Below, in pieces: positions 11,147 to 64,000 of a DNA stretch of 64,000 nucleotides. The translations under genes and the position numbers were made by a program. Position 1 is the stretch's first letter. Each line of letters starts with the position of its first letter. A model generated the notes under the pieces. The model saw nothing but the letters and a program-made list of their open reading frames with translations. It searched no databases and was not told where the DNA came from. Origin of the DNA: a virus; the IMG/VR virus record IMGVR_UViG_3300028840_006907, positions 288,001-352,000 of that record; one strand, 5' to 3'.

Positions 11147-11176
11147 ATTTACATATAGATATTGAAAGGAGATTGT

Positions 11177-17141: not shown

Positions 17142-17155
17142 TAGGAGGACGAAGT

Positions 17156-27858: not shown

Positions 27859-28485
27859 CTAAAATTTCCTTTCTACAGTATCTTTGAATTTAATCATTTT
27901 CCCAGTTCCGGTTCCTATGTGAGGAAAAGGAGTTTCAAATTCATATTTAATGACACATTTTGGCCAAGTCATGGTTGATTTTCCTCTTCTTTGTACTTTT
28001 GTTGTTGTCACACTTCTATTGTTATCTTCTATAATGAATGTGCAAGGTAAATCCCAACCATCTACATAACGAACAGCTTCATAAAAATGTCCTTCATCTT
28101 CAGCTCCATCTCCAATAAAACACCATACTTTATTTTTGCTTTTCTCCATTTTTAAAGATAAGGCTATTCCGGTAGCTATAGAAGCGGTTCCTGCTAGTAT
28201 AGAAGATGACAGGAAATTTAATTTTTTATCGAAGACATGCATTGAATCCCCGTTTAATAATATCTTTTCAAGATCTTTTTCATTTCCTCCTGCTAGTAAA
28301 TAATGGTAGTGGGATCGATGGGTAGAAAGAATATAATCTCCTTCATTAACTTTTTTGAATATTTCAATAATTTGATCTTCATTTCCTCCATTTAAATATA
28401 TCAAATAAGGAAGAAGCCCTTCTTCAAAGAGTTCAATTACTCTCTTTTCAAAAGAGATAAGTTCATTTTTTGTTTTATTAAACAT
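27859..28485 (-). CDS. thiamine-diphosphate-dependent enzyme, transketolase N-terminal / E1-alpha-like subunit
   Basis: TPP-binding motif GDGAEDEGHFYEA and upstream STHRSH; short split subunit. Confidence 0.55.
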   Translation of the reverse strand: MFNKTKNELISFEKRVIELFEEGLLPYLIYLNGGNEDQIIEIFKKVNEGDYILSTHRSHYHYLLAGGNEKDLEKILLNGDSMHVFDKKLNFLSSSILAGTASIATGIALSLKMEKSKNKVWCFIGDGAEDEGHFYEAVRYVDGWDLPCTFIIEDNNRSVTTTKVQRRGKSTMTWPKCVIKYEFETPFPHIGTGTGKMIKFKDTVERKF

Positions 28486-29545
28486 AGTTATCTCCGTAAC
28501 ATTCTATTATTTGATGTATTATCTTATTTTTTGCCTCATTAGCACATTGATGTGTACAAGATATGTCAGGTCTAAAATTTTGAAAGAAATTTTCTGTATC
28601 TCGTGAGAACCAGGTTTCACTGAATTTTTTATTTTTAATGGATCCTACCAATCCTTTTGGAGAATAAGCCATATTGTGACAAGTATAGATATTGAGATCA
28701 GCTCCAATTACAGGTACTATTAACGAGAAGAAACATTTTTTGTATTCTCTTTTATTTACCATAGGAGATATATTGTAACTGTCAAAAACATCAATACCTT
28801 CAATTTGACTAGCATATATAGTATCCAATTGTTCTCTTACTTGATATTTAATGGTATTGTGATAGTTATAAAAATCAGGAACCCACACCGGGGAGAATCG
28901 TATATTATCTACACCCATTTTATGTACAAGTTGAAAAGCTTCTATTAAGAATTCACAATTTTCTTTTGTTATGATATAGTTGACCCCGAGATTACAGGAA
29001 CTTTCTTTTTTTGAAAAGTTAAGAACATTTTCTACTATTTGATGAAACATTTTAGGGGATGCTTTTCTCGATTCGATAAAACTTTTTTCATCCCAGTAAT
29101 CGATAGAAACTCTAATCCATTTAGCATGAGTCATAATATCAGCTATGTTTCCACTGAGGAATTGACCATTTGTTAATATGGAAAGATCTATTTTACACTC
29201 AAGAGTTTTTTCAAGTATTTTCTCAATACCTTTATGAATTAATGGCTCTCCTCCACCAGAATAGGTAATAGCTTTAACACCAATGTCTTGAAGATCCTCT
29301 AATATTTCCATCATCTTTTCTGTGGGAATTTCATCCACTCTTTTCATATCGTCATGCATTTTAGAAAAGGAATAGTTGTACACACAGAAGTAACAATTAT
29401 GACAACATCTATTGGTAGGTTTTATTCTGACATAGATAGGAGAAGTTACAACATCATTTCGAAACGATTTCAATTTATCAGGAAACCACACTATTTTATA
29501 GTTGTTGTATTTATTATTCATTGTCATAGAAACCTCGTGTTTCAA
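28478..29545 (-). CDS. radical SAM enzyme
   Basis: CxxxCxxC cluster in CCHNCYFC near N-terminus; glycine-rich SAM region YSGGGEP. Confidence 0.85.
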   Translation of the reverse strand: MKHEVSMTMNNKYNNYKIVWFPDKLKSFRNDVVTSPIYVRIKPTNRCCHNCYFCVYNYSFSKMHDDMKRVDEIPTEKMMEILEDLQDIGVKAITYSGGGEPLIHKGIEKILEKTLECKIDLSILTNGQFLSGNIADIMTHAKWIRVSIDYWDEKSFIESRKASPKMFHQIVENVLNFSKKESSCNLGVNYIITKENCEFLIEAFQLVHKMGVDNIRFSPVWVPDFYNYHNTIKYQVREQLDTIYASQIEGIDVFDSYNISPMVNKREYKKCFFSLIVPVIGADLNIYTCHNMAYSPKGLVGSIKNKKFSETWFSRDTENFFQNFRPDISCTHQCANEAKNKIIHQIIECYGDNYV

Positions 29546-34710: not shown

Positions 34711-36765
34711 TTAATCCTCCCACTTAAGTTCAATCTCTTGATGTGGGGAAATATTTTTTACCCCTTTAATATTTCTGATAGATAGTTTACGGCCTTCCAA
34801 ATATTTCTGATTAAATTCTCCTGCTGAAATATTACCATGTCTGTTAGGGTAAGCTCCAACAAGATTTACAGGTATATTAACAATTTTAGATTCGTCATAA
34901 CAGAGCATCATAGGTCTTTCTGGAATCTGTTTCATAAGAGCATCTTCGAAAGTATTAGGATTGTTATAGGTACCGTTTTTTATTGCACTCATTAAATCAG
35001 GTGTACGATAGATATTTCCATCAACACTCATGGGATACCCCCAATCCCCGGCATAATTTTTCCATTCCCATTTATTTTCTGAAGAAAGATCGGGAGGCGG
35101 AGATGGTATGTTTTGGGGATAACAGAAATTGATCCTAGAGCATAATCTCAAAGAGATGCTTAAGATCTCATCTGGATTTAATTTGTCAAAGTCATTTCTT
35201 AATTTGTACGGTTCTTTGAATACAATGTCATCAACTAAAAACATTGTATATTCTTTTTCGGTATTTACAGCATTTATAACTGAATCTTTAAAATCATTAG
35301 TTTGTTTATAAAAGTAGAATCCTGGATGATCTGAGATAACTTTATCATAACCAGCTTTAAAATCATCGTTACTGTATGTCCATATAATAGTTATTTTGAA
35401 TTCGTACCAGTTTTCCCAAAGTTCCTTTATACTTCTTAATAATAAATCTAGTTGACATGCCCGATCTTTACTGAAAATAACAACATTCATATTTTTTAGT
35501 CTTTTATAGGGAGGTCTTTGGAAGATCCCATGAGCACAGTCCCTCTGTGTAGACCCTCTTTTATGGTCATTGACATCACTTTCAGTATTATAGATGTAGT
35601 TAAATGAAGTTAATAATTTAGCGTGTGAAGGACCTGCCATTTCGAGCATGGGTATCATGAATGACAAATCTCCTGCCATATGCCAGAAAGTGTCACCAGA
35701 GATAAAATCTCTTTTATCTATTTTTCTAAACAGCCATGTTTTAAAGGTCCTTAAATGAGTGGCTCTCCAGTCGGTGGTTTTTCTGAGAAGGTCCCAATTG
35801 GGCATTTTTGCCCATCCATCTCGTTCACCTCTTCCATTATATTCTCTAAATTGTCCGAATGAGATCCAGGTATCCGGGTCTTTATAAGCTTCAAGGACTC
35901 TTTCAAAAACCTTATTGTCATCTGGTAGCCAGTCATCTCCATCAATATTTATACAAATATCTTGATTATTAATTTCGGGTCTATGTAAAGTATGATAATA
36001 ATTTCCGCTGACATATCTTTTTTCGGTATTATTTATAATAACAAATCGATCATCTCCGTAAGTATGCCTTTCAATAAAATCAAGACTGTTATCTGTAGAT
36101 AGGTCATTACAGATATAACATTTCCAGTTTCTTACTGATTGGTTTTTTATACTGTTGATACATCGGATAATGTATTTACCTGCATTCCAACATGGAGTGA
36201 CAATTCGTAATGTATTTTTTTCTTCTTGATATTCTTGTAACACTTTGACTTCAGGTTTGGTCTCTTCTTTTTGGATACTCTTTTTTCGAACAACAATTTC
36301 GAAGGACCATTCTCCGTACATTTTTAAGTCGTAACGTTCATGATGGATAAGTTCTACACCACCTATTTTTTGAAGAATTTCCCAGAGATCTTCCCAGCCA
36401 AAATGATGGATATGTTTTTTGTTACATCTTGGATCATCTAATGGATGATAATATTCTTTGTCTACTTGGTAGAGGACTAGATATCCATCATCTTTGAGTA
36501 TTCTGAGCCACTCTCTGAGGGTTGCTTCGGTATCATATATTTCTTCCAATAAATGACTGGAATAGACATAATCAAAATGTTTATCAGGGTAGCAGGGCAT
36601 GAGACGGGCGTCTATGGGCATGTCTGCGAAAGGACTTAAAAGATCTATCCCTATAGCATCAATTTTTATTTTTGTATTACCACAGCCTAAGTCAACTCCT
36701 TGACCTTGACAGTATTTGAGTAATCTATTTCTGCAATTATCTGTTTCTCCTTTATGTCTTTCCAT
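34711..36765 (-). CDS. multidomain methyltransferase-glycosyltransferase (class I MT / GT2 / C-terminal GT-A-like)
   Basis: N-terminal GVDLGCGN ... LKDDGYLVLY; central GT2 RIVTPCWNAGKYI...CNDLSTDNS; C-terminal region with FLVDDIVF. Confidence 0.8.
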   Translation of the reverse strand: MERHKGETDNCRNRLLKYCQGQGVDLGCGNTKIKIDAIGIDLLSPFADMPIDARLMPCYPDKHFDYVYSSHLLEEIYDTEATLREWLRILKDDGYLVLYQVDKEYYHPLDDPRCNKKHIHHFGWEDLWEILQKIGGVELIHHERYDLKMYGEWSFEIVVRKKSIQKEETKPEVKVLQEYQEEKNTLRIVTPCWNAGKYIIRCINSIKNQSVRNWKCYICNDLSTDNSLDFIERHTYGDDRFVIINNTEKRYVSGNYYHTLHRPEINNQDICINIDGDDWLPDDNKVFERVLEAYKDPDTWISFGQFREYNGRGERDGWAKMPNWDLLRKTTDWRATHLRTFKTWLFRKIDKRDFISGDTFWHMAGDLSFMIPMLEMAGPSHAKLLTSFNYIYNTESDVNDHKRGSTQRDCAHGIFQRPPYKRLKNMNVVIFSKDRACQLDLLLRSIKELWENWYEFKITIIWTYSNDDFKAGYDKVISDHPGFYFYKQTNDFKDSVINAVNTEKEYTMFLVDDIVFKEPYKLRNDFDKLNPDEILSISLRLCSRINFCYPQNIPSPPPDLSSENKWEWKNYAGDWGYPMSVDGNIYRTPDLMSAIKNGTYNNPNTFEDALMKQIPERPMMLCYDESKIVNIPVNLVGAYPNRHGNISAGEFNQKYLEGRKLSIRNIKGVKNISPHQEIELKWED

Positions 36766-39759: not shown

Positions 39760-40011
39760 TTTGTCTCCAAGCCAATTTTAAAAAAGATAAATAAAAATTA
39801 GGTCTCATCATAGTAAAAAATATTAAAAGAATATTAAAATACCCTTTACATGCCATATAAATACTTTTTTCTTTTAGAAGTCCTTATAGTCCAGTAGGTT
39901 ATATATCAATTTAATTATCTTTTAATACAAAATTCCTTTGTATAGATCTAAATTTTCTTTAAAATAGAGATATTAAATTCAAATCTAAATCAAATAGTGA
40001 AAGGATTCCTA

Positions 40012-41475
40012 ATGGTAACAGAGTTTACAAAAGGCAAAAATCAAAAATTTGTAGCAACTATATCCTTCAGTCTTAATTGGGATGATAGAGATATTAAATC
40101 TATTAAGATAAAAGAGGGTCAGGAACTTTTCTATGATGGTGAAGTAGCTACTGTAGAAAATGGTGCTGGACAAGTAAAAGGTCGGTGTATGGGGTTAAAA
40201 TCAGCCATTAATGTTATGAATTGGTTGGTTCCTGTGGAAAATGGGGGGTCTTCAAAAACTCCTGAAGTACCAAAAATAGTTAGTGATAGTTTATTTGAGA
40301 ATGATGATTATAAACCAGGAATAGGTGGAAATCTTGACACTTATATCGAACGAACTAATGAAATTGGTGGGAAACGAGAAATTATCAAGGAAGAAGATTT
40401 GATTGTTAAAACTGTCTCACCTATTAATAAGAGAGAAGAGCAACCTAAGAAAGGAAAATTGGAAATAGCAGGAGATCAAGTTGAAGTCCCTAAAGACCGC
40501 CTTTTAGTAAGTAGTACCACTATAAGAACAAAGTCGAGTAAAAGAGATGTCACAATAACCAGAGCTGATGAAATGGGAGCTGATTCGGTACAACCTCTTA
40601 AAAAGGTTAAAGGAACAACTGCTAAAAAAGAAAAGAAAAAAAGTTTTACAGTTGATGATACTACTCCAAGACAAATTCATGAAGATATGAAATTGGATGA
40701 GATCCATCGTATCACTAAAGTTGTAAATGCTGATGAGTCTCAAGATGCTAAAGTTGTAAAGAAAATCGATAGATCTAAAGTAGAAGTCAAAGAAATTGAG
40801 GGAGTTACATTAAAGAGAACCGATTCTCCAAAAGATGTTAAGTTTAATAAAACAACTTCTCCTACTGAAGTTTCTATAAAAACTACTGTTGGTTCTGGAA
40901 GTAATTATTCCGCAGGAGATCAAGGTGGTGTGGTTGTAGGTAGATCTAAAGTTGCTAAAACTGGAGTTGAGAAAAAAGGTCAAGATTTAATTGATGATAT
41001 TTTTGAGGAAGCTCCAGTAATTACTGAAGAGGAAAAACAAAAACAAGCTAAAAAATTAGCTGAGAGAACAAAAAAAGCCCAAGAACGAGCGGCCAGCAGG
41101 AAAAAAAGTTCTAAAGAAACACAGAAAATGATGGAAAAGGAGAAAGAAGTTCAGAATGTAGAAGTTGAAATCCCTGCTGATAAGGCACCTGATCTTATTG
41201 AAGAAGTAAAAGCAGATGATTTAACAAAAATTACATCAGTGGAAATAGATGGTGATTTAACTGAAATAACTTCTGTAAAAGAAGATACTGTTGATTATCT
41301 ATTAATGTTGCCCGATAATTGGAACAAACTACATTGGGTAAAGAAGGAAAAATTTATAAAAGAAGTAACAGATGCTTCCTTTATAAGGTTTATTCTTTCT
41401 ATGGAAATAACCAAAGCAGTCAGAAATGCTTGTTTAGAAAGGTTAGAAGAACTTGGACAGAAAGAGTCAGGCTAA
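40012..41475 (+). CDS. Lys/Glu-rich low-complexity protein
   Basis: RBS GAAAGGA 6 nt before ATG 40012 (ORF track starts at GTG 39997); long charged low-complexity stretches. Confidence 0.55.
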   Translation: MVTEFTKGKNQKFVATISFSLNWDDRDIKSIKIKEGQELFYDGEVATVENGAGQVKGRCMGLKSAINVMNWLVPVENGGSSKTPEVPKIVSDSLFENDDYKPGIGGNLDTYIERTNEIGGKREIIKEEDLIVKTVSPINKREEQPKKGKLEIAGDQVEVPKDRLLVSSTTIRTKSSKRDVTITRADEMGADSVQPLKKVKGTTAKKEKKKSFTVDDTTPRQIHEDMKLDEIHRITKVVNADESQDAKVVKKIDRSKVEVKEIEGVTLKRTDSPKDVKFNKTTSPTEVSIKTTVGSGSNYSAGDQGGVVVGRSKVAKTGVEKKGQDLIDDIFEEAPVITEEEKQKQAKKLAERTKKAQERAASRKKSSKETQKMMEKEKEVQNVEVEIPADKAPDLIEEVKADDLTKITSVEIDGDLTEITSVKEDTVDYLLMLPDNWNKLHWVKKEKFIKEVTDASFIRFILSMEITKAVRNACLERLEELGQKESG

Positions 41476-41506
41476 ACGAATACTTGCGAATGTTGTCGAT
41501 TTTGAT

Positions 41507-43231
41507 ATGCATAACCTTTTTCCTCCACGAACCTTTATGGAGAATCTGGAAGATGCATCATCAGGAGAGTTTACATCTCAGCCTCAAAAAACTCTTAGGG
41601 AACGCCCTTATGGTACTCAACCATTAATGGTAACCCCTAAGTATGAGGGTGATTTCCTGAAAAAGTTACGGAAACCCGAACTAGAAGGCAAACCTGTAAT
41701 GCCTTTGGAAAATGTCGTGAATGTTTATGCTGCAAATCCAAATAATTTATGGGATTTCAGTATGCCTTCTGAATGGTTAAAACATCAGGAACGGCCTTTT
41801 CCCCGTAACCTCGTGGATCTCTATTATGAAACAAATAGGCCAGGTGAGGGTGTTGGAGAAAAAACTCTTGATGAATACCATGATCGGGGTTGGGATGCAG
41901 ATGATGCTCCTGAAATGTCAGAAGACAAACCTATTCGTAGAGGACCTTTTCCTGGGAAACCTTTAAAAGTTCCTTTTCATTCGGCATCAAAAAGAGTGGT
42001 GGCGTCATATTTATCTGAGTTTACGGAAAAAGATGAATGTTGTGGACCGAATGTAGGGATAGTTGTAGCATCATATTTAATGAATTGTGTTCCTTCTGAA
42101 TTTATTGTTAATTTTGAAAATATTAAAACCGCTATGTTATTAGAGGGGTTAGAAGAAAGTCGGATTGATAGTAAAACAAAAGGACTTCATAAATTAGAGA
42201 CTGGGGATGTGGTTGTAAGACCTTATAGAAATAGCCCTAAACAGGGTAAATGGATTTTTAAAACATTCTCAGGTCCAAGACCACCTGCAGCAATAGAGTG
42301 GCCTTATACTACAACTTTTGAGTTTATACCACATGGAAGAGAAAAACGAGTAAATAAACTTCATGTAAGAACGAGTTGCACTTGTCCTTCCTGGCTTTTT
42401 TGGGGTGCTCAATATAATGCTACTATGCAGGATTATAGGTATGGTCCTATAAGACCTAAGTTTGCTCCTCCTGACAAAAGAGATAAAAGGCGTAAGTTTT
42501 TAGCCTGTAAACATATCATAGCTTGTATTCCATATTTAGTTGGAACAGGACAACGTGGTAAATTTACCGATGAAGGTTTTTCTCTTCATATGATTGATGT
42601 TCCTGTAGAAAAGAGAAAACGGATCATAAAAGCTCCTAAATTTCAAATAATGAAAAAGGCTCCGATAGAAGAGTTAAGAATACCCCAGGAATTAATGAAA
42701 GCAGGTAAGAAGCCTGAAGTAAGATCTATTGTTTCTGAGTGGAAAACTGCTACTCCGCGTTTAAGAAAATCCATGTTGAAAAAGTTGGATGATGTTCAGG
42801 ATGTCTCTTACATAGCTCATAGGTTTCCTGAATCAGCTACTCATTTAGTTGCTGAGAGATTGAAGGAAATTGGTGATAAGACAAAACAGATGGATGTCAA
42901 GAAAGATGCGGTGGAGGAAATAAAAGTAATAGAGAAGATTGAGGATAAAGTTGAAAAAGCTCTTCCAGAAGTTCCGGCTGAATTGAGTCATTTTGAAGAT
43001 GATGAGAAGATCCAAAATTTATTAAAGGACATTAAAGAAACTCCTGGTTGGGAAAGAAAAAGTACACTTTTGAAGGAACAGGATGATGCTGATGCTCTTG
43101 CATATATGGCAATAGCTTTATATCGAGAGGATTTTGATGAAAGTGTTAATATTATCCTTGAAAAATTAAGTGATATGGTTAAGGAAAAGGGTGATCCAAA
43201 AGCCAAGAAATGGTCGGAGTATATTTATTAA
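41507..43231 (+). CDS. hypothetical protein with Cys/His cluster (possible zinc finger)
   Basis: First ATG 41507 (track start 41453 is TTG, overlapping upstream gene); CTCPSW ... CKHIIAC arrangement is SWIM-like but with a longer spacer. Confidence 0.5.
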   Translation: MHNLFPPRTFMENLEDASSGEFTSQPQKTLRERPYGTQPLMVTPKYEGDFLKKLRKPELEGKPVMPLENVVNVYAANPNNLWDFSMPSEWLKHQERPFPRNLVDLYYETNRPGEGVGEKTLDEYHDRGWDADDAPEMSEDKPIRRGPFPGKPLKVPFHSASKRVVASYLSEFTEKDECCGPNVGIVVASYLMNCVPSEFIVNFENIKTAMLLEGLEESRIDSKTKGLHKLETGDVVVRPYRNSPKQGKWIFKTFSGPRPPAAIEWPYTTTFEFIPHGREKRVNKLHVRTSCTCPSWLFWGAQYNATMQDYRYGPIRPKFAPPDKRDKRRKFLACKHIIACIPYLVGTGQRGKFTDEGFSLHMIDVPVEKRKRIIKAPKFQIMKKAPIEELRIPQELMKAGKKPEVRSIVSEWKTATPRLRKSMLKKLDDVQDVSYIAHRFPESATHLVAERLKEIGDKTKQMDVKKDAVEEIKVIEKIEDKVEKALPEVPAELSHFEDDEKIQNLLKDIKETPGWERKSTLLKEQDDADALAYMAIALYREDFDESVNIILEKLSDMVKEKGDPKAKKWSEYIY

Positions 43232-47966: not shown

Positions 47967-48536
47967 ATGTTTTATAGAAGAGAATTAATTGATCTAAATT
48001 CTAGTGAAGGAAAGACTCTAATGGAATGTATGTTGCCAGGTTGTCAGGGCAATGAGTTTAAAGAGACTGTTGCCAATAGATTAAGAAAAGTCTCACGGAT
48101 ACTTAAGGCTCAATTCTATGACATCGATCCTGAAATGCTCCTGAGACTATATCAGGATTATCTCGAAGAAATGCCTGATAATTGGAATTATATCCTTCCA
48201 CCTGAACTTAATGAAATTATAAAAAGTGGTCAGGCTAGTAATTATTTTCTACTTGATATTCGGAAACCTGAAGATTTTCAGGAAGTTCGTATACCAGGTA
48301 CAGTAAATATCTATTGGCAAGATGTATTGAAAAAAGAAAATTTAAATAAATTGCCTATTGATAAAGAAATAATAATTATTTGTTATCTTGGTCATACAAG
48401 TTCTCAGATCTTGGTTATTTTGTCCACATTAGGTTACCGTTGTAGATCTCTGAAGTTCGGGATGGGTAAAAGTCCCGATGTAAAAGTACTTATAAAGGGT
48501 TGGTTGGATTATAATTTCCCAGTGATAAAACAATAG
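47967..48536 (+). CDS. rhodanese-like domain protein
   Basis: FLLDIRKPEDFQEVRIPGTVNI and IIICYLGHTSS resemble rhodanese fold with active-site Cys loop. Confidence 0.45.
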   Translation: MFYRRELIDLNSSEGKTLMECMLPGCQGNEFKETVANRLRKVSRILKAQFYDIDPEMLLRLYQDYLEEMPDNWNYILPPELNEIIKSGQASNYFLLDIRKPEDFQEVRIPGTVNIYWQDVLKKENLNKLPIDKEIIIICYLGHTSSQILVILSTLGYRCRSLKFGMGKSPDVKVLIKGWLDYNFPVIKQ

Positions 48537-48543
48537 ATTTATT

Positions 48544-49032
48544 ATGAATAAGCAATCGTTTAATAAAGAAAATGTTACAGAACTTCTTAGTCAATTGAAA
48601 AAAGTAGTTAATCGGGATTTGGGTGATGAATATAATCAGGAATTAATAGAATTAAGTAGGAAAATAGACCGAAATTTTAAAAAGAGAAAATTAGTAATGC
48701 GGGTGGCTTCTAATTTTTTAAAAACTATTCTTGCTACAATGGCATATAGTACTCATGGTAAATGGTCACCTTCAAAAGAGATTTATAAAACTGAAAAAGA
48801 ACGTGGTAATAAAGTTGATAAACTTCTTTTACAAGAAAATTATGACGCTATTTGGGTATGCCCTAAACCAGAAGATTGTGTAAGATATAATAGAAGTAGT
48901 GATGAAGAAGATGATCCTGTAACACAGGAAGAAATTGATGAACTCGTCAAAGTCAATTTGAGTGGAGCTACACACGTAAAATCTATGGATGATGGTGATG
49001 GCGGGGAATTATGGATTAGAAAGGCAAAGTAG
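48544..49032 (+). CDS. hypothetical protein
   Basis: ORF in operon. Confidence 0.5.
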   Translation: MNKQSFNKENVTELLSQLKKVVNRDLGDEYNQELIELSRKIDRNFKKRKLVMRVASNFLKTILATMAYSTHGKWSPSKEIYKTEKERGNKVDKLLLQENYDAIWVCPKPEDCVRYNRSSDEEDDPVTQEEIDELVKVNLSGATHVKSMDDGDGGELWIRKAK

Positions 49033-49610
49033 TGATTTGTTCTGATGAATATCAATTCATATTTTATGCAGTCCCTAAAACCGGTTCTCGATCCATGCAA
49101 AATTTTCTTCAACGTTACGGTCGTCGCTCTGTAACTGGCTGGTCACCTAATCATAATAATTATGAAGAAGTAAAAAGTGATGTAGGTATAGAAAAAAGTA
49201 ATAAATATTTTAAGTTTGCTTTTTTCAGAAATCCATGGGCTATGCTTGTATCCATGTATTTCTATAATATGCATATATGGGGACTAAATGCCAAAAAAGA
49301 TTCTGTTGTAAATTGGCTTAATACATATAAAGGCGGGGATCCTTATATTCCTTATATTTTTGATAATGAAGGAAATGCCATTTTGGATTTTATGGGTAAG
49401 TTAGAAAATTCCAGAGAAGATTTAAAAACTGTCTGTAAAATGTTAAAGATCCCGATCTCAGGAGAATTGTCCCATATAGGAAAACAACATGTAAAAGGAA
49501 GATTGGATTATAGAGCGTATTATGAAAGTCCAGTACTAGTGGAAAAAATAAGAAAGATATTTTCAAAAAGTCTTAGTGTGTTAAATTATGACTTTAATGA
49601 AGGGGTTTAA
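49032..49610 (+). CDS. sulfotransferase-like protein
   Basis: N-terminal FYAVPKTGSRSMQ resembles PAPS 5'-PSB motif; GTG start. Confidence 0.5.
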   Translation: MICSDEYQFIFYAVPKTGSRSMQNFLQRYGRRSVTGWSPNHNNYEEVKSDVGIEKSNKYFKFAFFRNPWAMLVSMYFYNMHIWGLNAKKDSVVNWLNTYKGGDPYIPYIFDNEGNAILDFMGKLENSREDLKTVCKMLKIPISGELSHIGKQHVKGRLDYRAYYESPVLVEKIRKIFSKSLSVLNYDFNEGV

Positions 49611-49949: not shown

Positions 49950-50816
49950 ATGGACAAAAAATATGAAGACCGAATGCTTGTCGTTTTTATCTTAGTGGGT
50001 CTAGTTGGTGGGTCACTGTTCTATTTCCTTAAAGATGGTCAGCCTCTCAGCTCAATTTTCATGACTTTCGCTCTATCAAGTATCCTCTATCGATTCCTGG
50101 GTGGAATTGGCCAAGGCACAAAATTCAGTGTCGGAGCATTTCGGTTAGGTGGTAGTGCAGCCTTCATGATCGGCTGTATCTTTTTTATCAACGAGTACAT
50201 TTTCCCAAAACCAGAAATCAACACCATTGTTTTAAGTACTCCCCAGGATCGATGGGTTCCTGTTAAATACCCTACAGGTGAGTATGTGAATGTTAAGGTA
50301 TTAACTCCTTCTGGAGATACTATTATTCATGGTATAAGTAGTGTAGAAATGGATGCTTTAAAAAAAAGGGAATACTGCATCACAAAAGAAGGGGAGAATT
50401 TTTATATCTGTTCTAATGCTGATTCAACGGTAATAGGCCATCTTAAGTTTGAAGATGTTTTTAAAGCTATTGAAAATGATATCCATATCACAGTCCAAGA
50501 TTTTCGGGTTTTTAAATTATACCCTAATCCTATAAATGACCCAAAAGATCAAGAAAAGAAATATAAAACTACTGATTCACTTGATGCTGTAAGTCAGACT
50601 TTTCCCATAGTAATCGAAGTCGATAAAACTAATATGAATATAAAGACAAAGGATGACAGTTTATTAACATCAGATGTACCTCGTAGTGAAAAATTCTATT
50701 TAGTTGATATTGAAAATGAGTATTTTATAGTTACAATATTACATGCTAATTTAGAAACATCAGAAAGTAAATGGTATTCTGAGTTTCTTGTTGGAAAAGT
50801 ATCTATTAATCGATAG
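49950..50816 (+). CDS. membrane protein
   Basis: Strong RBS AAGGAGG; three N-terminal hydrophobic helices. Confidence 0.55.
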   Translation: MDKKYEDRMLVVFILVGLVGGSLFYFLKDGQPLSSIFMTFALSSILYRFLGGIGQGTKFSVGAFRLGGSAAFMIGCIFFINEYIFPKPEINTIVLSTPQDRWVPVKYPTGEYVNVKVLTPSGDTIIHGISSVEMDALKKREYCITKEGENFYICSNADSTVIGHLKFEDVFKAIENDIHITVQDFRVFKLYPNPINDPKDQEKKYKTTDSLDAVSQTFPIVIEVDKTNMNIKTKDDSLLTSDVPRSEKFYLVDIENEYFIVTILHANLETSESKWYSEFLVGKVSINR

Positions 50817-50823
50817 AGGTAAT

Positions 50824-51252
50824 ATGAGCAATATGAAAATTGCAATAGCTTCTTATATGCGTTATACAGTTGTTTTAGCCAACTTGAAAGAGCATTTCAA
50901 AAGAGAACTCGATCTAGCTGGCCTATTTGATAAAGACTCCGATTATAATGGAATGATAGGTAACGCTGTTATGGACCTGTGTAAAGTCTTCTCTGATCAG
51001 GGCCATAGCGGGTTCTCCGCGAACTGGGTTCTGAAATTGTTCGATACTCTTGGTCACTATAAAACGTTGACTCCTATTACAGATAATCCGAAAGAGTGGA
51101 TGAAGGTTACAGATGGCCTCGGTAGAGATGAACCGGTCTGGCAGAGTAATCGAAATCCTTCCCTTTTTTCTAATAATGGTGGAAAGAGTTATTATGATGT
51201 AGACGATAAGAAGCGTAAGAAGATCCGCTCTAAAAAGTTTAAAAAGAAATAA
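50824..51252 (+). CDS. hypothetical protein with basic C-terminus
   Basis: ATG 50824 with AGAGG RBS (track start 50788 is an overlapping extension); KKRKKIRSKKFKKK tail. Confidence 0.45.
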   Translation: MSNMKIAIASYMRYTVVLANLKEHFKRELDLAGLFDKDSDYNGMIGNAVMDLCKVFSDQGHSGFSANWVLKLFDTLGHYKTLTPITDNPKEWMKVTDGLGRDEPVWQSNRNPSLFSNNGGKSYYDVDDKKRKKIRSKKFKKK

Positions 51253-53408: not shown

Positions 53409-55859
53409 TTATATTTTATTATTTTTTCTAAGGAGAGCTATCTGACGTTTAATCCATCGAGGAGTTTCTTCAAGAGTTTCAGCCATTTGATTTCTTGTCA
53501 TCTTTCCACGATTATCTATTATGAATTGGAGCTTTTCTTCAGTCTTTCTATCTTTGGTACAACCAATAGGGTTTTTTGTAGATAATGTACCTTTTTTTTG
53601 TAAGAATTTTATTTGAGATTTAACCCATCGCTCTGTTTCATTGAGAGCTTTAGATAATTCTTTTTTAGTTTTATTTTTATAATTAGTGATTATATACTGC
53701 GTTTTTTCAGGGGTTCTTCTACATTTTGTTGAGAATTTAGAAATCTCTTTTAAATAGGTAAATTTCTCAGTGGGTTGTTTAATATTTATATCTTCAATAC
53801 ATTTTGAATTATATATTTCTTTTTCTCTTTTAGGATAAGGTTTAGTAACATAATTTTTTAATTTGTTAATTTTTTTCTTATCTCTTTTATTTTCACCTAT
53901 TAATAAGACATATTTATGTTTTCTTTCAGTAATAAATTTTTGAGCTTCAGATAATATATTTTTATTCCAATTATTCCATTGAACTTTAATTCCTTCTGGT
54001 ATGGTACTCATATTTTTAAAACCATTTTCTTTAAACCATTCCTTTTGAGAAATAATCCCTTGATTTTTACACCATTTTTTAAATGCTGATGTACGTTTTA
54101 GAGATTGAGCTGAAAAAGTCCTATTATTTTTAATGGAAGGATGTTTATATAAGTATGAACTTCCAAAGTTATTTCCTAGATAATCAAATCCACAAGCTTG
54201 GTAAATAGTCCCTATTTCAAGAGCTTTAGGATCAGCATAACCTATGAAAGCTCTTTTAGAAGTGTTATTAGCCATCCAATTACAAGCAAACCTTATAAGA
54301 CGGCTACCCAGGTTTTTCGGGGTCCATGAGGCAGTGGCACCTCTTTGAATTAAAGCTTCATATTTGGGAGTATCTTTACCTAGAATTTTGGAATATGCTG
54401 TGGGTTCATTTATAAATAATACTCCTGCGAGAATATTATTGTATCTGGCTGTGAAGCACCATTTTGGTATTACTCCAATTGTTCCTAACCATTCATATTT
54501 TTTTATAAATTGGACCATTTCATTATTAAATTTTTCTTCAGATAATGTAAAAGAAGTAGCTTTTAAAGAAGAGTGATTGAAATCGATATTTTTTTTATCT
54601 TCATCAATCCATTGAAGTTTCTTTTTATATTGGTGGCATATAAAAGTGGTCTTGTTTTTACTGTTAATTTTATTTTTTATTAAATCAATGATAATACCTT
54701 TTCGGATAGCTTCTTTTACATCATCAGACCAAAATCTAATCAAATTGGGTATATTTTTATTTTGGATTTCATCATTCTTAATATTTTCTTTTATTTTTAA
54801 TGCCCTTGGAGACGTATCATTTTCTCTTATTTCTTTACCATGCCAATAATTACCATCATATTGTACCCATAAGTTATAGCGAGGCATATAGAAATCAATT
54901 ACATGTTTAATAATTGGGTGCATAACTTGATGTTCTACAAAAGGATCAAATACAATAAGATAATTAAAAAAGTTATTTTCTTCATCTGAGGATGAGAAGG
55001 AATTATTTAGTTTAACTGTTTTATATGTTTTTTCTTTTATTTCAACATTCTGTTGGGGATTTTCAACGCCATATCTTTCAATATTAGTTTCAGTGATTTT
55101 TTTCTTAATCTCTGGAGATTGGAATACATTGTCAACCCCGTATCTTGATTGTACTGTTACTTTAACTTTTCTTTTTACTTCTTTAGATTGAGAGGGGTAT
55201 TCTACTCCTCGTTTTTCAATATTAGATTGACGGGATTTTTCTTTCATTGAGTTTAGTTGAGTAGAATATTCTACGCCATAACGTTTTTTAATAGTTTCGT
55301 TATTATGTTTAACTATATCTTCATTTATTTTATCTCGATTCCTTCTTAATCCTAGTTTAATAGCTCTTTCTCGGATGGCTTTCCAGGTCCTGTTTTCAAA
55401 GTAGAGCATAATAAATTCCATAGAATTCTTTTCATATACTTCTTTTAAAAGATCATCTTCTTTGGGTGACCAGAAGTCTTCCCTAGCAGGAGCGCTTTTA
55501 CCACCATCAATCATTTCTTGTTTAATTATTTCAGGATTTCTTTGAAGGTTTAATTTTTGAGCATTACTTCGGATGCTTTGCCATGATCGATTCTTGAATT
55601 TAGAAAGGATAAATTCTTTTGAATTATTTTCATATATATTTTTAAGAATATTTATCTCTTCGGTTGTCCAGGAATCTTTTCTTGGTCCTCTTTTTTTACG
55701 GTCTTCATTTATAAGGTCAGGATTACGGTGAAGATTTAGCTTACGTGCTTTTCTACAGATGGTTGTCCAAGATTTATTTAATTTGGAGATAATAAATTCT
55801 TTTGAATTATTTTTATATATTTCTTTTAATAAATTTTCTTCTTCTATTTTCCAACGCAT
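53409..55859 (-). CDS. large multidomain DNA-binding / nuclease-like protein
   Basis: Start at MRWKIEE (RBS AGAGG; track start 55916 is a non-ATG extension); three tandem ~60-aa HTH-like repeats (W..EE..L...Y...S.EFI..F.NR.W..IR..A.KL.L.RN), tandem RYGVEN repeats, Vsr/DUF559-like motif FYMPRYNLWVQYDGNYWHG, two C-terminal ET.RW.K.QI.LL.K repeats. Confidence 0.6.
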   Translation of the reverse strand: MRWKIEEENLLKEIYKNNSKEFIISKLNKSWTTICRKARKLNLHRNPDLINEDRKKRGPRKDSWTTEEINILKNIYENNSKEFILSKFKNRSWQSIRSNAQKLNLQRNPEIIKQEMIDGGKSAPAREDFWSPKEDDLLKEVYEKNSMEFIMLYFENRTWKAIRERAIKLGLRRNRDKINEDIVKHNNETIKKRYGVEYSTQLNSMKEKSRQSNIEKRGVEYPSQSKEVKRKVKVTVQSRYGVDNVFQSPEIKKKITETNIERYGVENPQQNVEIKEKTYKTVKLNNSFSSSDEENNFFNYLIVFDPFVEHQVMHPIIKHVIDFYMPRYNLWVQYDGNYWHGKEIRENDTSPRALKIKENIKNDEIQNKNIPNLIRFWSDDVKEAIRKGIIIDLIKNKINSKNKTTFICHQYKKKLQWIDEDKKNIDFNHSSLKATSFTLSEEKFNNEMVQFIKKYEWLGTIGVIPKWCFTARYNNILAGVLFINEPTAYSKILGKDTPKYEALIQRGATASWTPKNLGSRLIRFACNWMANNTSKRAFIGYADPKALEIGTIYQACGFDYLGNNFGSSYLYKHPSIKNNRTFSAQSLKRTSAFKKWCKNQGIISQKEWFKENGFKNMSTIPEGIKVQWNNWNKNILSEAQKFITERKHKYVLLIGENKRDKKKINKLKNYVTKPYPKREKEIYNSKCIEDINIKQPTEKFTYLKEISKFSTKCRRTPEKTQYIITNYKNKTKKELSKALNETERWVKSQIKFLQKKGTLSTKNPIGCTKDRKTEEKLQFIIDNRGKMTRNQMAETLEETPRWIKRQIALLRKNNKI

Positions 55860-55962
55860 ATGAGTACCTCTTTTTAGTATATTACTTATTATAACAGGTA
55901 TTAGAGTTATTGTCAATATTTCATTTAATAAATATGGAATTCATTAATTTATAGGGAAAAAG

Positions 55963-59695: not shown

Positions 59696-59941
59696 ATGGC
59701 TTTTGAAGTTGAATATTTTGAATTGTCACCGAGCGATGCAACAAATGAGTATGTCTCATTAGGGGGTGTTCCAGTGGTTGCTGATAATGTTGCAATAGAT
59801 CTTGTGGGAGGTACAGCCCAAGCATTAACGAATGATTTTGCCGTTGATGGAACAAGAATTGTATGGGATAGTACATCCTATAATTTAAATGGACTGCTTG
59901 CTACTGGTGACAAAATGAGAGCTATCTACGATAGATCCTAA
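59696..59941 (+). CDS. small hypothetical protein upstream of fibre gene
   Basis: RBS AAGGAG; 81 aa. Confidence 0.5.
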   Translation: MAFEVEYFELSPSDATNEYVSLGGVPVVADNVAIDLVGGTAQALTNDFAVDGTRIVWDSTSYNLNGLLATGDKMRAIYDRS

Positions 59942-59978: not shown

Positions 59979-62900
59979 ATGGCTCAAGTAGAAAGAAAAT
60001 GGATCCAGGACCAAGCAATTTCCAATGAAAAAGTAGATCCCACTGATATTTATACCATTACAGGTTTAAGAGTTGATGAAACCAATGCCATTGGGAGAGT
60101 AGGAATAGGTTTATCTAGCCCTTTGGATGCTCTTCATATTCAACGAACTGATTCTTCTTCTGGAATGATGCTGGATCTTAGTGATGGTACAAATGGTAAA
60201 CTTTATAAGATATATTCAGGAGCTAATGGTTTACTGAATTTTACTGATGCTACAGATGGGGGCATATTCACCTATGGTGAATCAGGTTCGATAGGTCGAG
60301 TTGGTATCAATACCGCATCTATCCAAGATCACCTTCATGTAAGTTCCCCTTTAACAGATGCTGCGTTAAGACTTGATTTAGATGATGGACTCAATGGTCG
60401 AGCTTATCGTCTTGTCTCAGATACAGATGGAGCTTTTAGGATAATTGATGTTGATGCGGGTAATGTAAATAGACTTCAGATTGCTAATACAGGAACTTTA
60501 ACTGTCTCAGGTGATGCAACTTTTGATAGTAATTTTCAAATTAATGGTACTGTTACAGTTATTAATACTGAAATTGTCATTGCAGATCAATTAGAAATAA
60601 ATCAAACTGACAATCAGGCAGCATTGATAGTAAGTCAAGATACAGGTGGTGCTACAGCCACTGTAATGAGAATTGAAAATGCTGGCACAGGCCATGCTTT
60701 AACCGTAGATTCTGGTAATGTAGGTATTGGTACTTTAACTCCGGCTGCTCCTCTTCATGTTCAAGGTGATATAATTACTGCCAATGGGTATAATATCGGA
60801 GACACCACTCATAGAATTGGTACTCTTTGGATGGCTTCTACTGTAGATTATTTGACTGACCTTAATTTTAGTTCAGGTGGAACAAATGTTACTTTTGCAA
60901 CCGGTGGAAATGTCGGGATAGGTTCTGGTACTCCTACCCAGGCCCTGGATGTGGTTGGAACTATAGAAAATACAGGTGATATCATAACAACTGGTTCTTA
61001 TCCTTCCGGTTTAATAAGAGGAGCTTATTTAACGATAACTACTGGAAATTCGACTTTCCAAGGAAGAGTGGGAATTGGTGTTACAAGTCCGTCTTATCCT
61101 CTTCATGTTGGTGGAGACATTTATTCCAATACAGGTAATATTGTAGCCACTGCTGGAACTGTGACAGGTGGATCTGGTTTAATAGCTACTACAGGTGGTG
61201 TTATAGCCTCTGCTGGAAATATAACAGCGACCTTGGGTGATCTCATCGCTTCTGCGGGTTCTGTAACTGCTAATACAAATGTAACTGCTACGAATGGAAA
61301 TATAGTTGCTTCTAATGGAAATATTTCTGCTACGAATGGTACAGTAACAGGAGGCACCGGTTTAATAGCTACCACAGGGGGTGTGACCGCTACGAATGGA
61401 AATATAGTTGCTTCTAATGGAAATATTTCTGCTACGAATGGTACAGTAACAGGAGGCACCGGTTTAATAGCTACCACAGGGGGTGTGACCGCTTTAGCTG
61501 GTAATATCTCTGCTTCGGCTGGTTCTGTAACTGCTAATACTAATATAACAGCCACGAATGGTAATATTGTTGCTTCTAATGGAAATATTTCTGCTACAAA
61601 TGGTACGGTAACAGGAGGCACCGGTTTAATAGCGACTACAGGTGGTGTAACCGCTACGGCTGGAAATATCACTGCTTCAAATGGTAGTTTTGTCGCTCCA
61701 AATGGAATTGTAAGTGTAGGTTTTGGCGTTATAGCAGCAGGGGGTGATATATTTGCCCAAACGGGTAAAGTAGGAATTTCAACCAGTTCTATTGCAGGAG
61801 GTTATGTATTACATGTTCAAGGAAACGCTTATTGTTCAGGTCAAGTAGATACAAATACTTTGGATGTAGGTAGTGGCAGTTTTACTGTAAGTGCAATTGG
61901 TGCAACAAATATCGGACCAGGCTGGTTAACTTTCGGTCAACATATGTCTGGTGGAGGACAGATTGGATCTGCTTCTACCGTAAATATTGTTTCAACCAGT
62001 GGTGCAACTATGTCAGGAGGTTCAGGCGCTGTCTCAATTACTACTAATAACAGTGGTACGCCAAGTGCGATTAATGTGACCTCTGGAAATAACACCGGAT
62101 CAGGAGTTGGTGGAGCACTCAATCTGAATGCAGGTGATTCGGGAGGAGCTGGTACAGGTGGTGCAGTAACTATTACTGGAGGAACGGCTTCAGGTGGTGG
62201 ATCTACAGGAGGAGACATTTTGCTGCTTCCTGGAAGTGCTGTCTCAAATGGGCGCGTTGAGGTAGGCACAGGTGCCTCTTCGAAAAATTTATGGGTTTCA
62301 GGTAGTGTAACTATAGAAGGAGCTAATTCTGCTTTTGCTCTTTCGATTAATAATACGAATTATGTAGGAGCTTATTGTGCAATAGCAGGAGCATCAACGG
62401 TAGCTGGCTGGTTTGAAAATAGTGGTTCAGATTCAACATCTATGTTTGTGCAACAATTAAATACTGGTAAAGGGCTTTTCGCTACTGGATTAGGATTAAA
62501 TTCTTTTGCAGGATTTTTCCAAAGTACGGGCTATACAACTCTTAGGTCAGAAGTGAGTGGTACTGGAGGTGGTGATTATGCTGTACATGCAATATGTACA
62601 AATGCTGGATCGAGTGCCACTTCAGCAGCAGTTTTTGCTCAAAATTGGGGAGGTGGAAAAGCTATTCAGGCAACCGCAGGAACTGGAACTACTATTCAAG
62701 GGTCAAACACTAATGGTACTGCTATTTATGGGTCTCAAGCAGGAACCTCTGGTAGAGCAGGACGTTTTAGGTGTAATGCTGGATCTTATGCATACAATGC
62801 TGTTGAGGTAGAAGTGACTTCAGGTACAGGAGCTTCAAAAGGGATCTTAGTTAATTATACCGGTTCTGGTAATGCTATAGAAGTAAACGGTGGTAGTGGC

Positions 62901-63665
62901 TATGGTATTGAAGCATACCAAAGTGCAGGAACAGTTTATCATGGGACTAATTCAGGAACTACAGGTAGAGCTGCTTTATTCGAAACTTCTAATACCAGTT
63001 TTAATGGTACTATAGTTGAAATAAGTAGTAATACAACATCACTGAATAATAATTGTTTAGTTTGCAATCATTCAGGTAGTGGTACAGGTCTTACTGTTAA
63101 CTCCAATGCAGCGGGTGCTAGTTTTGGTATTAACAGCTTTATGCCGGGTGTCTCTGGAACTGGAAGAGCTATTAATGGCTACTGTGTTTCAGCATCAGGA
63201 TTTGCCGGTTATTTTACTGGGAATGTACATATTGCGGGTACTCTTTCTAAAACTGCGGGTGGTTTTAAAATTGATCATCCAATTGAACCTGAGACAAAGA
63301 ATTTAGTTCATAGTTTTGTTGAAAGCCCTGAGATGAGGAATGTCTATTATGGACGGGCTGTGACTCATGATGGGACAGCATCTATAGGTCTTCCGGATTG
63401 GTGGGTTACATTAAATGGGTCTAATAAGGAAGAGTATAATTATAGTTTAACTACTATTGGTAAATACAGCAGATTATTTATTAGTAAAGAAATAGAGAAC
63501 AATCAATTTGAAGTCTCTTCATTGGATGGAGACTGTACTTTTTCCTGGACTATCTCAGCCATTCGCCATGATACTTATGCTGAGAGCAACAGAATACAAG
63601 TAGAAAAGAACAAAACACAAGAAGAAATAGATGATTATAAAAAAGAGCATGGCATTTCTGTCTAA
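59979..63665 (+). CDS. giant Gly/Thr/Ser-rich fibre protein (tail-fibre or surface-fibre like) with internal tandem repeats
   Basis: 1228 aa; RBS AAAGGAG; at least six G.VGIGT..P...LHV.G motifs, 34-aa tandem repeats, C-terminal FKIDHP...VHSFVESPE...YYG domain. Confidence 0.8.
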   Translation: MAQVERKWIQDQAISNEKVDPTDIYTITGLRVDETNAIGRVGIGLSSPLDALHIQRTDSSSGMMLDLSDGTNGKLYKIYSGANGLLNFTDATDGGIFTYGESGSIGRVGINTASIQDHLHVSSPLTDAALRLDLDDGLNGRAYRLVSDTDGAFRIIDVDAGNVNRLQIANTGTLTVSGDATFDSNFQINGTVTVINTEIVIADQLEINQTDNQAALIVSQDTGGATATVMRIENAGTGHALTVDSGNVGIGTLTPAAPLHVQGDIITANGYNIGDTTHRIGTLWMASTVDYLTDLNFSSGGTNVTFATGGNVGIGSGTPTQALDVVGTIENTGDIITTGSYPSGLIRGAYLTITTGNSTFQGRVGIGVTSPSYPLHVGGDIYSNTGNIVATAGTVTGGSGLIATTGGVIASAGNITATLGDLIASAGSVTANTNVTATNGNIVASNGNISATNGTVTGGTGLIATTGGVTATNGNIVASNGNISATNGTVTGGTGLIATTGGVTALAGNISASAGSVTANTNITATNGNIVASNGNISATNGTVTGGTGLIATTGGVTATAGNITASNGSFVAPNGIVSVGFGVIAAGGDIFAQTGKVGISTSSIAGGYVLHVQGNAYCSGQVDTNTLDVGSGSFTVSAIGATNIGPGWLTFGQHMSGGGQIGSASTVNIVSTSGATMSGGSGAVSITTNNSGTPSAINVTSGNNTGSGVGGALNLNAGDSGGAGTGGAVTITGGTASGGGSTGGDILLLPGSAVSNGRVEVGTGASSKNLWVSGSVTIEGANSAFALSINNTNYVGAYCAIAGASTVAGWFENSGSDSTSMFVQQLNTGKGLFATGLGLNSFAGFFQSTGYTTLRSEVSGTGGGDYAVHAICTNAGSSATSAAVFAQNWGGGKAIQATAGTGTTIQGSNTNGTAIYGSQAGTSGRAGRFRCNAGSYAYNAVEVEVTSGTGASKGILVNYTGSGNAIEVNGGSGYGIEAYQSAGTVYHGTNSGTTGRAALFETSNTSFNGTIVEISSNTTSLNNNCLVCNHSGSGTGLTVNSNAAGASFGINSFMPGVSGTGRAINGYCVSASGFAGYFTGNVHIAGTLSKTAGGFKIDHPIEPETKNLVHSFVESPEMRNVYYGRAVTHDGTASIGLPDWWVTLNGSNKEEYNYSLTTIGKYSRLFISKEIENNQFEVSSLDGDCTFSWTISAIRHDTYAESNRIQVEKNKTQEEIDDYKKEHGISV
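61288..61491 (+). repeat. two perfect 102-bp in-frame tandem repeats inside the fibre gene (third diverged copy near 61552-61653)
   Basis: Identical DNA units encoding TATNGNIVASNGNISATNGTVTGGTGLIATTGGV. Confidence 0.85.
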
Positions 63666-63695
63666 ATTTCTTTTGTAAAAAGGAGTTAAATACTC

Positions 63696-64000
63696 ATGTC
63701 ACAAGTGTTGAGAAAATGGATAGCTGATCAAGCCGTTAATAATGATAAAATAGATCCTACCGATACCTATACAATTACAGGATTGAGAGTCGATGAGACG
63801 AATGCCGTAGGAAGAATAGCAATGGGATTAAGCAGTCCATTAGATGCTATTCATATTAGGAGGACTGATACTTCTGCTGGTATAATAATGGATCTTGATG
63901 ATGGAGGTTCAGGACGATCTTATCAAATAACTTCAGATCAAAGTGGCTTTTTAAATGTAAGAGATAGAGATCTCGATGTTGATCGATTGACTTTATATTC
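63696..64000 (+). CDS. second fibre protein, paralogue of 59979 gene (3' end outside window)
   Basis: RBS AAAGGAG; N-terminus MSQVLRKWIADQAVNNDKIDPTDTYTITGLRVDETNAVGR closely parallels the N-terminus of the 59979 protein. Confidence 0.6.
   Translation, partial: MSQVLRKWIADQAVNNDKIDPTDTYTITGLRVDETNAVGRIAMGLSSPLDAIHIRRTDTSAGIIMDLDDGGSGRSYQITSDQSGFLNVRDRDLDVDRLTLY

Follow-up and report, generated by a model that had tools for sequence, protein, structure and literature searches.

What kind of protein is encoded at the end of a 64,000-nucleotide stretch of viral DNA (positions 288,001 to 352,000 of IMG/VR record IMGVR_UViG_3300028840_006907; the whole stretch is referred to here as the window)? 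The gene in question specifies 1228 residues, much of them repetitive, and contains a tandem duplication without a single mismatch; its locus raises the question of whether the product belongs to a virus particle or to a cell surface, and of what the duplication does. The protein is best read as a long fibre on the virion of an uncultured huge phage with a genome of ~469 kb; it is probably trimeric, is assembled from exchangeable modules and is most likely the tail fibre or receptor-binding protein. We give this reading a probability of about 75%.

The fibre gene occupies positions 59979-63665 of the plus strand and is preceded by a Shine-Dalgarno-like AAGGAG site. Its product opens with an N-terminal module (residues 1-378; 59979-61112), which has the N-terminal consensus M[AS]Q..RKWI.D.A[IV]NNEKID and five copies of a repeated motif. 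This is followed by a tract of ~32 heptads of the form x-x-G-x-[IV]-x-[AST], with a 21-nt period (residues 379-593; 61113-61757), by a middle region (residues 594-1075; 61758-63203) that carries a sixth motif at nt 61764 and is then rich in Gly, Ser and Thr, and by a C-terminal tip domain (residues 1076-1228; 63204-63662) consisting of a conserved segment and a beta-sandwich. The original prediction, made from the sequence alone, held that the motif G.VGIGT..P...LHV.G recurs at least six times in a protein rich in Gly, Thr, Ser and Asn; six copies were counted, and a composition count confirms the richness. In the more general form G.[VI]G[IV][GNS]...P...L[HD][VI], the motif was found six times in the fibre protein and once in the open reading frame (ORF) at 1845-2657, with no further copy in any of the six reading frames of the window and 0 in 2000 shuffles of the fibre protein. 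Two antisense ORFs (61121-61672 and 61937-62269) overlap the gene; they were considered as genes and dismissed as probable by-products of its repetitive composition.

The five motifs of the N-terminal module (G.VGIG..P..L[HD]V, at nt 60093, 60294, 60714, 60906 and 61062) point to a fold. Comparison of the single fibre sequence with solved structures returned Bd2133 of Bdellovibrio (8OND, E=0.0046), aligned on the motif repeats. A profile of 45 family members searched against the PDB matched Bdellovibrio MAT fibre structures only, namely 8OND (Bd2133, E=1.1e-16), 8OJN, 8OML, 8OL4 and 8ON4. MAT (mosaic adhesive trimeric) fibres are trimeric, beta-helical proteins of ~1000 residues with an invariant N-domain and swappable tips of the S74 or non-S74 type (PMC10769870). 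By these alignments, the shaft is homologous to their trimeric beta-helix. A Peptidase_S74 chaperone domain (PF13884) is present at the C-terminus of two relatives of the fibre protein (P0006 and P0022), and the C-terminal sequence of a third (P0013) looks like one by eye; a Pfam scan found none in the fibre protein.

The modules occur in varied combinations. The N-module is common to the adjacent paralogue and to ~15 database proteins with other C-termini, and its N-terminus is strongly conserved and charged in 16 proteins (the query and 15 relatives). BLAST comparison shows that the N- and C-modules each occur, independently of one another, in different database proteins; a given relative may have either module or the two together, and shaft length and tip vary among them. 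The middle region, which is Gly/Ser-rich and of low complexity, has a single BLAST relative, the near-identical P0001.

In the AlphaFold2 model the tip consists of a conserved linker, F[KR]IDHP..P....L.H..VE[SG]PE, and a beta-sandwich with a predicted local distance difference test score (pLDDT) above 90. Structure prediction, which had been named beforehand as a check on the identity of the C-terminal domain, thus yields a defined fold, and its best matches are the C-termini of phage receptor-binding proteins; the model suggests a resemblance to these rather than membership. A tblastn search with the tip found the C-termini of three annotated phage proteins, the tail fiber of cyanophage P-SSM2, a virion structural protein of S-TIM and a tail fiber-like protein of a Flavobacterium phage, and its matches in BFVD are phage tail, minor-tail and collagen-repeat proteins. 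The domain is widespread, with 19,167 representatives (clustered at 50% identity) at E <= 1e-3 in an exhaustive profile search, and is found on 169 IMG/VR contigs. Ten family members that were scanned combine it with the fibre-forming modules collagen, YadA-head and DUF5907, while no Pfam model covers the tip itself in the query or in these ten; nor did the tip profile find a sequence-level relative among the solved chains of the PDB. The tip is also strongly conserved, with 25 invariant columns among 10 diverse sequences.

A scan of GTDB representative genomes yielded relatives of the tip domain only. On contigs from metagenome-assembled genomes (MAGs) of Bacteroidota and Acidobacteriota (L007-L015), secreted proteins of 530-1339 residues end in the same tip and carry QNVGI[NG].TG.LP...A.LDV motifs immediately after the signal peptide; from their sequences, they appear to be a widespread family of bacterial surface fibres that matches no curated model. 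The tip was also seen, at 41-48% identity, on two contigs (L023, L027) of a giant-virus MAG bin from the same metagenome, IMGVR_UViG_GVMAG-M-3300017963-10; either the domain occurs in giant viruses as well or the bin contains phage contigs. A giant eukaryotic virus was considered for the window on account of this bin and rejected, the bin's contigs having 42-45% GC and nothing else in common with the window, and Shine-Dalgarno-like sites preceding many genes of the window (see below).

The N-terminus speaks on where the protein is assembled. No signal peptide was found in the fibre protein or in its 15 N-module relatives (maximum Kyte-Doolittle hydrophobicity <=1.1); the N-terminus of the fibre protein, MAQVERKWIQDQAISNEKVD, reaches a 12-residue hydropathy of at most 0.38. 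In bacterial proteins with the same tip, by contrast, a classic signal peptide is present throughout, and the 12-residue hydropathy is 1.7-2.9. Because the query and its relatives lack what the bacterial tip proteins have, the sequences argue that the fibre protein would be assembled in the cytoplasm, as virion proteins are.

The surroundings of the gene are phage-like. The window has a GC content of ~33%, and its genes, many of them ORFans, are tightly packed and co-directional, with overlaps. Shine-Dalgarno-like sites precede 36 of its 54 starts, against ~13% estimated by hand from base composition, and neither tRNA nor housekeeping genes were found in its 64 kb. The exact 1228-residue protein is present on three public contigs, of up to 469,617 bp (another is 388,651 bp long), and contigs of 469,021-469,617 bp recur in several assemblies, which suggests that a complete genome of ~469 kb has been recovered repeatedly. 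A relative of the fibre protein, P0019, is encoded on a 466-kb contig (L002), where a portal gene (phrog_16240, E=6e-44) precedes it by 2 kb, next to a PHROG tail-fibre protein and a head maturation protease, and a distant N-module relative on a 175-kb IMG/VR contig matches PHROG tail-fibre families. Assignment of the element to a phage is well supported but indirect. Some homologues of the portal protein (P0227, P0237 and P0265) were seen on contigs of up to 424 kb that carry NCBI labels of 'Candidatus Nanoarchaeia archaeon' or 'Nitrosarchaeum sp.' MAGs; such contigs probably belong to huge phages and were placed by mistake in the bins of low-GC archaea.

Within the heptad tract lie two nucleotide-identical units of 102 bp (61288-61389 and 61390-61491, plus strand), each encoding the 34 residues TNGNIVASNGNISATNGTVTGGTGLIATTGGVTA; sequence comparison and Tandem Repeats Finder (TRF) agree on the 100% identity that had been claimed for them. 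The perfect period-102 run measures 105 nt, so that 207 nt are perfectly periodic, and TRF describes the array as 2.1 copies of period 102 with a score of 414. The unit boundary at 61288 falls on codon position 2, and as 102 nt make 34 codons the reading frame is preserved; taken in codon register, the two units span 61290-61391 and 61392-61493, or residues 438-471 and 472-505. One unit comprises four heptads and one hexad. In the AlphaFold2 model the tract forms a 3-residue beta-strand in every 7 residues, with pLDDT up to 83. The tract was also considered as a target of N-glycosylation, with 12 N-x-S/T sequons against 6.9 +/- 2.1 expected; this was dropped, since the surplus is owed to the duplicated unit and four relatives do not have it.

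The diverged third unit of the original prediction exists, although neither its placement nor its divergence is quite as described. The 102 nt directly after the second unit are only 47% identical to it in register; the older third copy (residues 526-559; 61554-61655, plus strand) follows a spacer of 20 residues. Its protein sequence is the same as that of units 1 and 2 in 34 of 34 positions, and its DNA differs at 8 of 102 nt, all of them third codon positions and synonymous. The unit is enclosed in an older repeat of 54 residues (418-471 and 506-559), whose copies differ at 25 of 162 nt and at 6 residues. Outside the fibre gene, TRF found no tandem array in the 64-kb window. This pattern would make the 34-residue duplication very recent and nested within the older 54-residue repeat; with nothing but synonymous changes in the third copy, purifying selection appears to act on the amino-acid sequence of the unit.

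Comparison of contigs shows that the number of units differs. An ENA contig (L001) is identical to a Joint Genome Institute (JGI) contig (L006, from 3300017963) over 23.5 kb except that it has one 102-bp unit fewer; the one-unit form is found on contigs of 469,260 and 469,021 bp, both from ENA. The window, with two units, differs from L001 and L006 by one single-nucleotide polymorphism (SNP), at 58533, and because it is distinguished in this way from L006 the two-unit form seems to exist in two strains or more. A further pair of contigs (L003 and L004) differs at 12 sites, which shows that identical re-assembly is not the rule between ENA and JGI. Relatives with the same N-module have 5, 8, 9, 14, 20, 27, 28 or 32 heptads at the same position, and P0003, P0009 and P0013 contain perfect or near-perfect internal repeats of their own, of 52, 32/64 and 46 residues, respectively. 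Since relatives vary in this way and have their own duplications, the heptad tract looks to be a recurrent hotspot of expansion, independent of any assembly. The recent expansion or contraction that had been proposed is supported by all of these comparisons, from the nucleotide-identical units and the contig one unit shorter to the lineage-specific duplications and the spread of heptad numbers among relatives.

Several observations weigh against the reading as a virion fibre and have to be set beside the above. Neither the window nor its 10-kb flanks yielded a gene for a capsid, portal, terminase, sheath or baseplate protein; a hallmark scan of the mid-window ORFs and of the flanking sequence on L001, L005 and L006 gave no structural hallmark, and a hidden Markov model built from 88 portal homologues detected no portal among all six-frame ORFs, none of those homologues being on a ~469-kb contig. 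The element is absent from INPHARED, from IMG/VR (searched with the whole protein and with the Mom-like fusion protein described below) and from GTDB representative genomes. The fibre protein matches no Pfam, PHROG or NCBIfam model. Its full-length AlphaFold2 monomer is mostly of low confidence (mean pLDDT 49.6), the middle region being unmodelled (residues 594-1075, pLDDT ~33), and Foldseek found nothing for this model in the PDB at E <= 0.001; trimer formation and location on the virion are properties that we infer. The same building blocks are used in secreted bacterial fibres. Because the tip is so highly conserved, it could equally well, or better, be a generic glycan binder or a cap for folding or trimerisation than a host-specific receptor binder. 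Finally, the one-unit allele is known from two ENA contigs only, and k141-style naming suggests that it may be an assembler collapse.

Some of these observations would suit a cell-surface fibre of a cellular organism or plasmid, an adhesin of the MAT or trimeric-autotransporter type. Such a protein could share its shaft with the Bdellovibrio surface fibres and its tip with the signal-peptide-bearing proteins of Bacteroidota and Acidobacteriota MAGs; some relatives have YadA_head repeats, no phage structural hallmark turned up in the window, and the large glycan cluster nearby can be read as a cell-envelope locus. We consider this improbable, however. The measure that finds signal peptides in the bacterial homologues finds none in the query and 15 relatives, Pfam detects no YadA anchor or other secretion or anchoring domain, the neighbours are Mom-like/HNH and Tad3 genes and ORFans, the 64 kb are free of tRNA and housekeeping genes, and fibre relatives adjoin portal, protease and tail-fibre genes on the 466-kb contig. 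The original prediction, which had left room for an adhesin, called this protein the strongest hint of a viral replicon; the viral origin is favoured here too, but the Mom-like, HNH and Tad3 neighbours mean that the fibre is not the sole hint. A virion fibre need not be a tail fibre, and the protein might decorate the head or neck, or form a whisker, as on some jumbo phages. The gene is not beside recognisable baseplate or tail genes, its relative on L002 sits in a head-gene neighbourhood, with the portal gene close upstream and the prohead protease gene nearby, and the tip is unusually conserved for a determinant of host range; the ORF at 1845-2657, with the same motif and a coiled-coil and collagen-like make-up, may also be reminiscent of fibritin-type whiskers. 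On the other hand, where relatives of the tip are annotated, it is as tail fibre, tail spike or minor tail proteins, PHROG tail-fibre families match neighbouring and related proteins, and the genes downstream (for the paralogue, for a lectin-like protein with two Laminin_G_3 parts and for a giant protein rich in Gly) are typical host-recognition cargo, so that a head or neck fibre is judged unlikely. An enzymatic tailspike, a polysaccharide depolymerase instead of a passive fibre, is judged very unlikely: the fold matches to such enzymes span only ~80-100 residues of their C-terminal beta-sandwich, no pectate-lyase, NosD or glycoside-hydrolase model matches at E <0.1, and the middle region is the low-complexity, poorly modelled segment described above.

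The difference of one unit can likewise be explained in more than one way, the one-unit form being either a co-existing allele or an assembler collapse as far as the sequences suggest. That the 34-residue block is polymorphic within one natural population of the ~469-kb phage, with one- and two-unit alleles, is put forward tentatively. There is a serious chance, if somewhat less than an even one, that the perfect duplication or the one-unit difference is an assembly artefact without biological meaning. L001 and L006 are otherwise identical over their shared 23.5 kb, as would be contigs from the same or sister read sets; both one-unit contigs are ENA records, and the record name that is shown for one of them follows the k141 style of MEGAHIT; and a perfect periodicity of 207 nt would exceed most k-mer sizes of the earlier assembly iterations. 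However, the two-unit form is present on three contigs from at least two strains told apart by the SNP at 58533, and at k=141 two copies of 102 bp should produce no repeated k-mer, which would make both alleles resolvable in principle. Duplication of the unit is, moreover, real in the history of the gene, as seen in the older copy with synonymous changes only and in the perfect multi-heptad repeats of orthologues.

If the protein is a virion fibre, its parts suggest how it might work. By analogy with tail-fibre families, the conserved N-module would dock the fibre and its paralogue at one site of the particle, so that different distal parts could be attached to a common docking site. The G.VGIG..P..LHV repeats would form an intertwined trimeric beta-helix as in MAT fibres, the homology being detected in the profile search and the trimer assumed from it. 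The ~32 heptads would then serve as a regular beta-ladder spacer, and the Gly-rich segment would lead into the beta-sandwich tip, whose family is found at the ends of phage tail fibres and of fibres secreted by bacteria. The 102-bp duplication could have arisen by slipped-strand mispairing or by unequal recombination between multi-heptad blocks, whereby whole sets of beta-strands may be gained or lost without disturbing the register. From general beta-sheet geometry, one unit (34 residues) would add ~5 beta-strands, or ~2-2.5 nm if the strands stack 4.8 A apart. The unit being part of the shaft, expansion and contraction of the tract would tune the length or reach of the fibre and not its binding surface. 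The idea that the repeat varies fibre length is in this respect plausible; its companion, that the repeat varies receptor specificity, is less so, the unit being outside the tip.

The fibre gene is followed by a paralogue that starts at 63696 (plus strand) and is cut by the window end (63696-64000). The closely related N-terminus that had been noticed for this gene amounts to 57% identity over the visible 101 residues, and the gene is a true paralogue. It is complete on L001 and L006, where it encodes 1158 residues, with the same N-module and a different C-terminal two-thirds; the first ~380 residues align with those of the fibre protein, at 87-100% identity between residues ~150 and 330, and divergence is complete thereafter. 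Beyond the window end, at L001 13616-23585, the paralogue is followed by two small ORFs (100 and 92 residues), by a 741-residue protein of two Laminin_G_3/DUF2341 lectin-like halves and by a Gly-rich protein of at least 1305 residues with GHGI.A.G repeats; the region has the look of a long block of host-recognition genes. Immediately before the fibre gene, a small ORF of 81 residues (59696-59941, plus strand) has a counterpart of 83 residues at the same position in a related 76-kb contig (L003). It matches no family and may encode a fibre accessory or adaptor protein. Scans of the paralogue and the small neighbouring ORFs against Pfam, PHROG and NCBIfam likewise gave no match.

At the other end of the window, the plus-strand ORF at 1845-2657 encodes a coiled-coil protein of 270 residues. 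The two features ascribed to it earlier, a GIGT..P..LH motif and a tract of seven Gly-X-Y triplets, were both recovered: the motif as a single copy, GNIGIGTDNPDSILHM, and the triplets, consecutive, in GARGIQGSTGLMGETGIQGEP, while the Pfam Collagen model misses the tract at E <= 0.1. The product is likely to be a further fibrous protein of the same element.

Between the two ends, the window contains genes of several kinds. A fusion protein of 835 residues with DUF7487, Mom-like DNA-modification, HNH/homing-endonuclease-like and HTH parts is encoded on the minus strand (53409-55916); its homologue in L003 shares 63% of amino acids and has the same position relative to the fibre gene. Another HNH/endonuclease VII gene lies just upstream. 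A homologue of the anti-Thoeris family protein Tad3 (142 residues; 50788-51252, plus strand, equivalent to L001 846-1274) was identified by a precomputed Pfam match; by its sequence it would be an anti-defence gene, and it supports a phage origin. Two large ORFs of 492 and 592 residues (39997-43231, plus strand) match neither Pfam nor PHROG. Residues 218-364 of the larger are 29% identical to the ORF after the portal gene on L002, and a short stretch also matches a 'tail protein' of Tunturiibacter phage Tunturi_5; on these similarities they may be structural genes.

A very large cluster of genes for the biosynthesis of glycans and sugar nucleotides, on both strands, fills ~35 kb of the window (4336-39759), which is unusual in a phage-like element. 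It includes a 994-residue fusion of GT2, GT1 and methyltransferase (4336-7320), a UDP-glucose dehydrogenase (8931-10280), an epimerase/dehydratase (11162-12151), a DegT aminotransferase (15373-16449), NeuB (17132-18151) and, on the minus strand, a radical SAM protein (28478-29545) and a fusion of methyltransferase and GT2 (34711-36765). Further on, the plus strand encodes a rhodanese-domain protein (47967-48536) and, close to it, a protein of the sulfotransferase family (49032-49610); together these may serve to sulfate the glycans that the cluster produces.

Perfect in-frame repeats and modular exchange are well known in phage fibres, and the protein is a well-built but ordinary example of phage fibre evolution, which leaves current understanding unchanged. 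What goes beyond routine is the difference of one unit between megaphage contigs that otherwise agree, the size of the tip family and the unusual character of the genome that carries the gene. The locus marks the host-recognition region of an uncharacterised ~469-kb phage-like element that is missing from phage databases, and it exposes a tip-domain family of more than 19,000 representatives with no matching Pfam model and no structure solved for a relative by sequence. The heptad tract offers a clear case from nature of a protein region that changes length by duplication of blocks while purifying selection acts on it. If both unit numbers do co-exist in the population, slippage in the tract would create standing heterogeneity of fibre length in a megaphage; this could be a form of bet-hedging for receptor access through surface layers of differing thickness, and the length polymorphism may be linked to the exceptionally large glycan cluster of the same genome.

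Among known systems, perfect in-frame tandem repeats are reportedly a feature of Borg elements, which have many such arrays, in genes as well as between them. The likeness lies in such a repeat within a gene of a large, low-GC extrachromosomal element. It ends at the single array of only 2 copies in 64 kb, at the position of the repeat within a pre-existing structural repeat and not in a new disordered region, and at the phage-type genes and Shine-Dalgarno-like sites of the window; with tandem arrays in one gene only, according to TRF, a Borg-like element was rejected. Trimeric autotransporter adhesins of the YadA/BadA type have 7- and 14-residue Hep_Hag/YadA-head repeats in strain-variable number, and resemble the query in its heptad-periodic beta-repeat tract of Gly, small residues and [IV] with variable copy number; one protein with the tip domain (P0018) carries true YadA_head repeats. 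The query differs in having no YadA_head match (Pfam, E <0.1), no signal peptide and no YadA anchor.

For the tip, the closest counterparts are fibre proteins of T4-like cyanophages (Prochlorococcus phage P-SSM2 PSSM2_295; the virion structural protein of S-TIM5/S-TIM66) and of the Flavobacterium phage immuto, whose homologous tips are 28-36% identical to that of the query (E down to 2e-7); Foldseek also matches Q58M60 (E=4e-7). These proteins are similarly long (~1170 residues) and are encoded in tail-fibre or tail-spike gene blocks, but they show no detectable similarity beyond the last ~150-180 residues and belong to another phage lineage with another genome size. The receptor-binding domain of the cyanophage Pam1 tailspike (7EEA) and the sandwich domains at the C-termini of Klebsiella phage depolymerases, of AP22 gp53 and of the R2 pyocin fibre are only 6-24% identical to the query tip; their beta-sandwich is a generic fold, and the similarity is therefore one of resemblance and not of membership.

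The most extensive likeness is to the MAT fibres of Bdellovibrio (Bd2133, 8OND; Bd1334; Bd3182), which have the same repeated shaft motifs (G.VGIGT..P...L.V.G), aligned with a solved trimeric beta-helix, and which are likewise proteins of ~1000 residues with a conserved N-module and swappable C-terminal tips, just as relatives of the query end in Peptidase_S74 or other domains. The MAT N-domain is beta-rich, of ~130 residues, and follows the signal peptide; the PDB chains cover tips only. In contrast with the MAT fibres, the query lacks the signal peptide of that family, has a different tip domain and an additional heptad tract, and is encoded by a phage-like element instead of a predator chromosome. 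The MAT "construction kit" would thus also serve the fibres of huge phages, without signal peptides, and the fibre described here appears, from its sequence, to be a phage counterpart of that kit, fitted with a tip of the kind found on cyanophage tail fibres.

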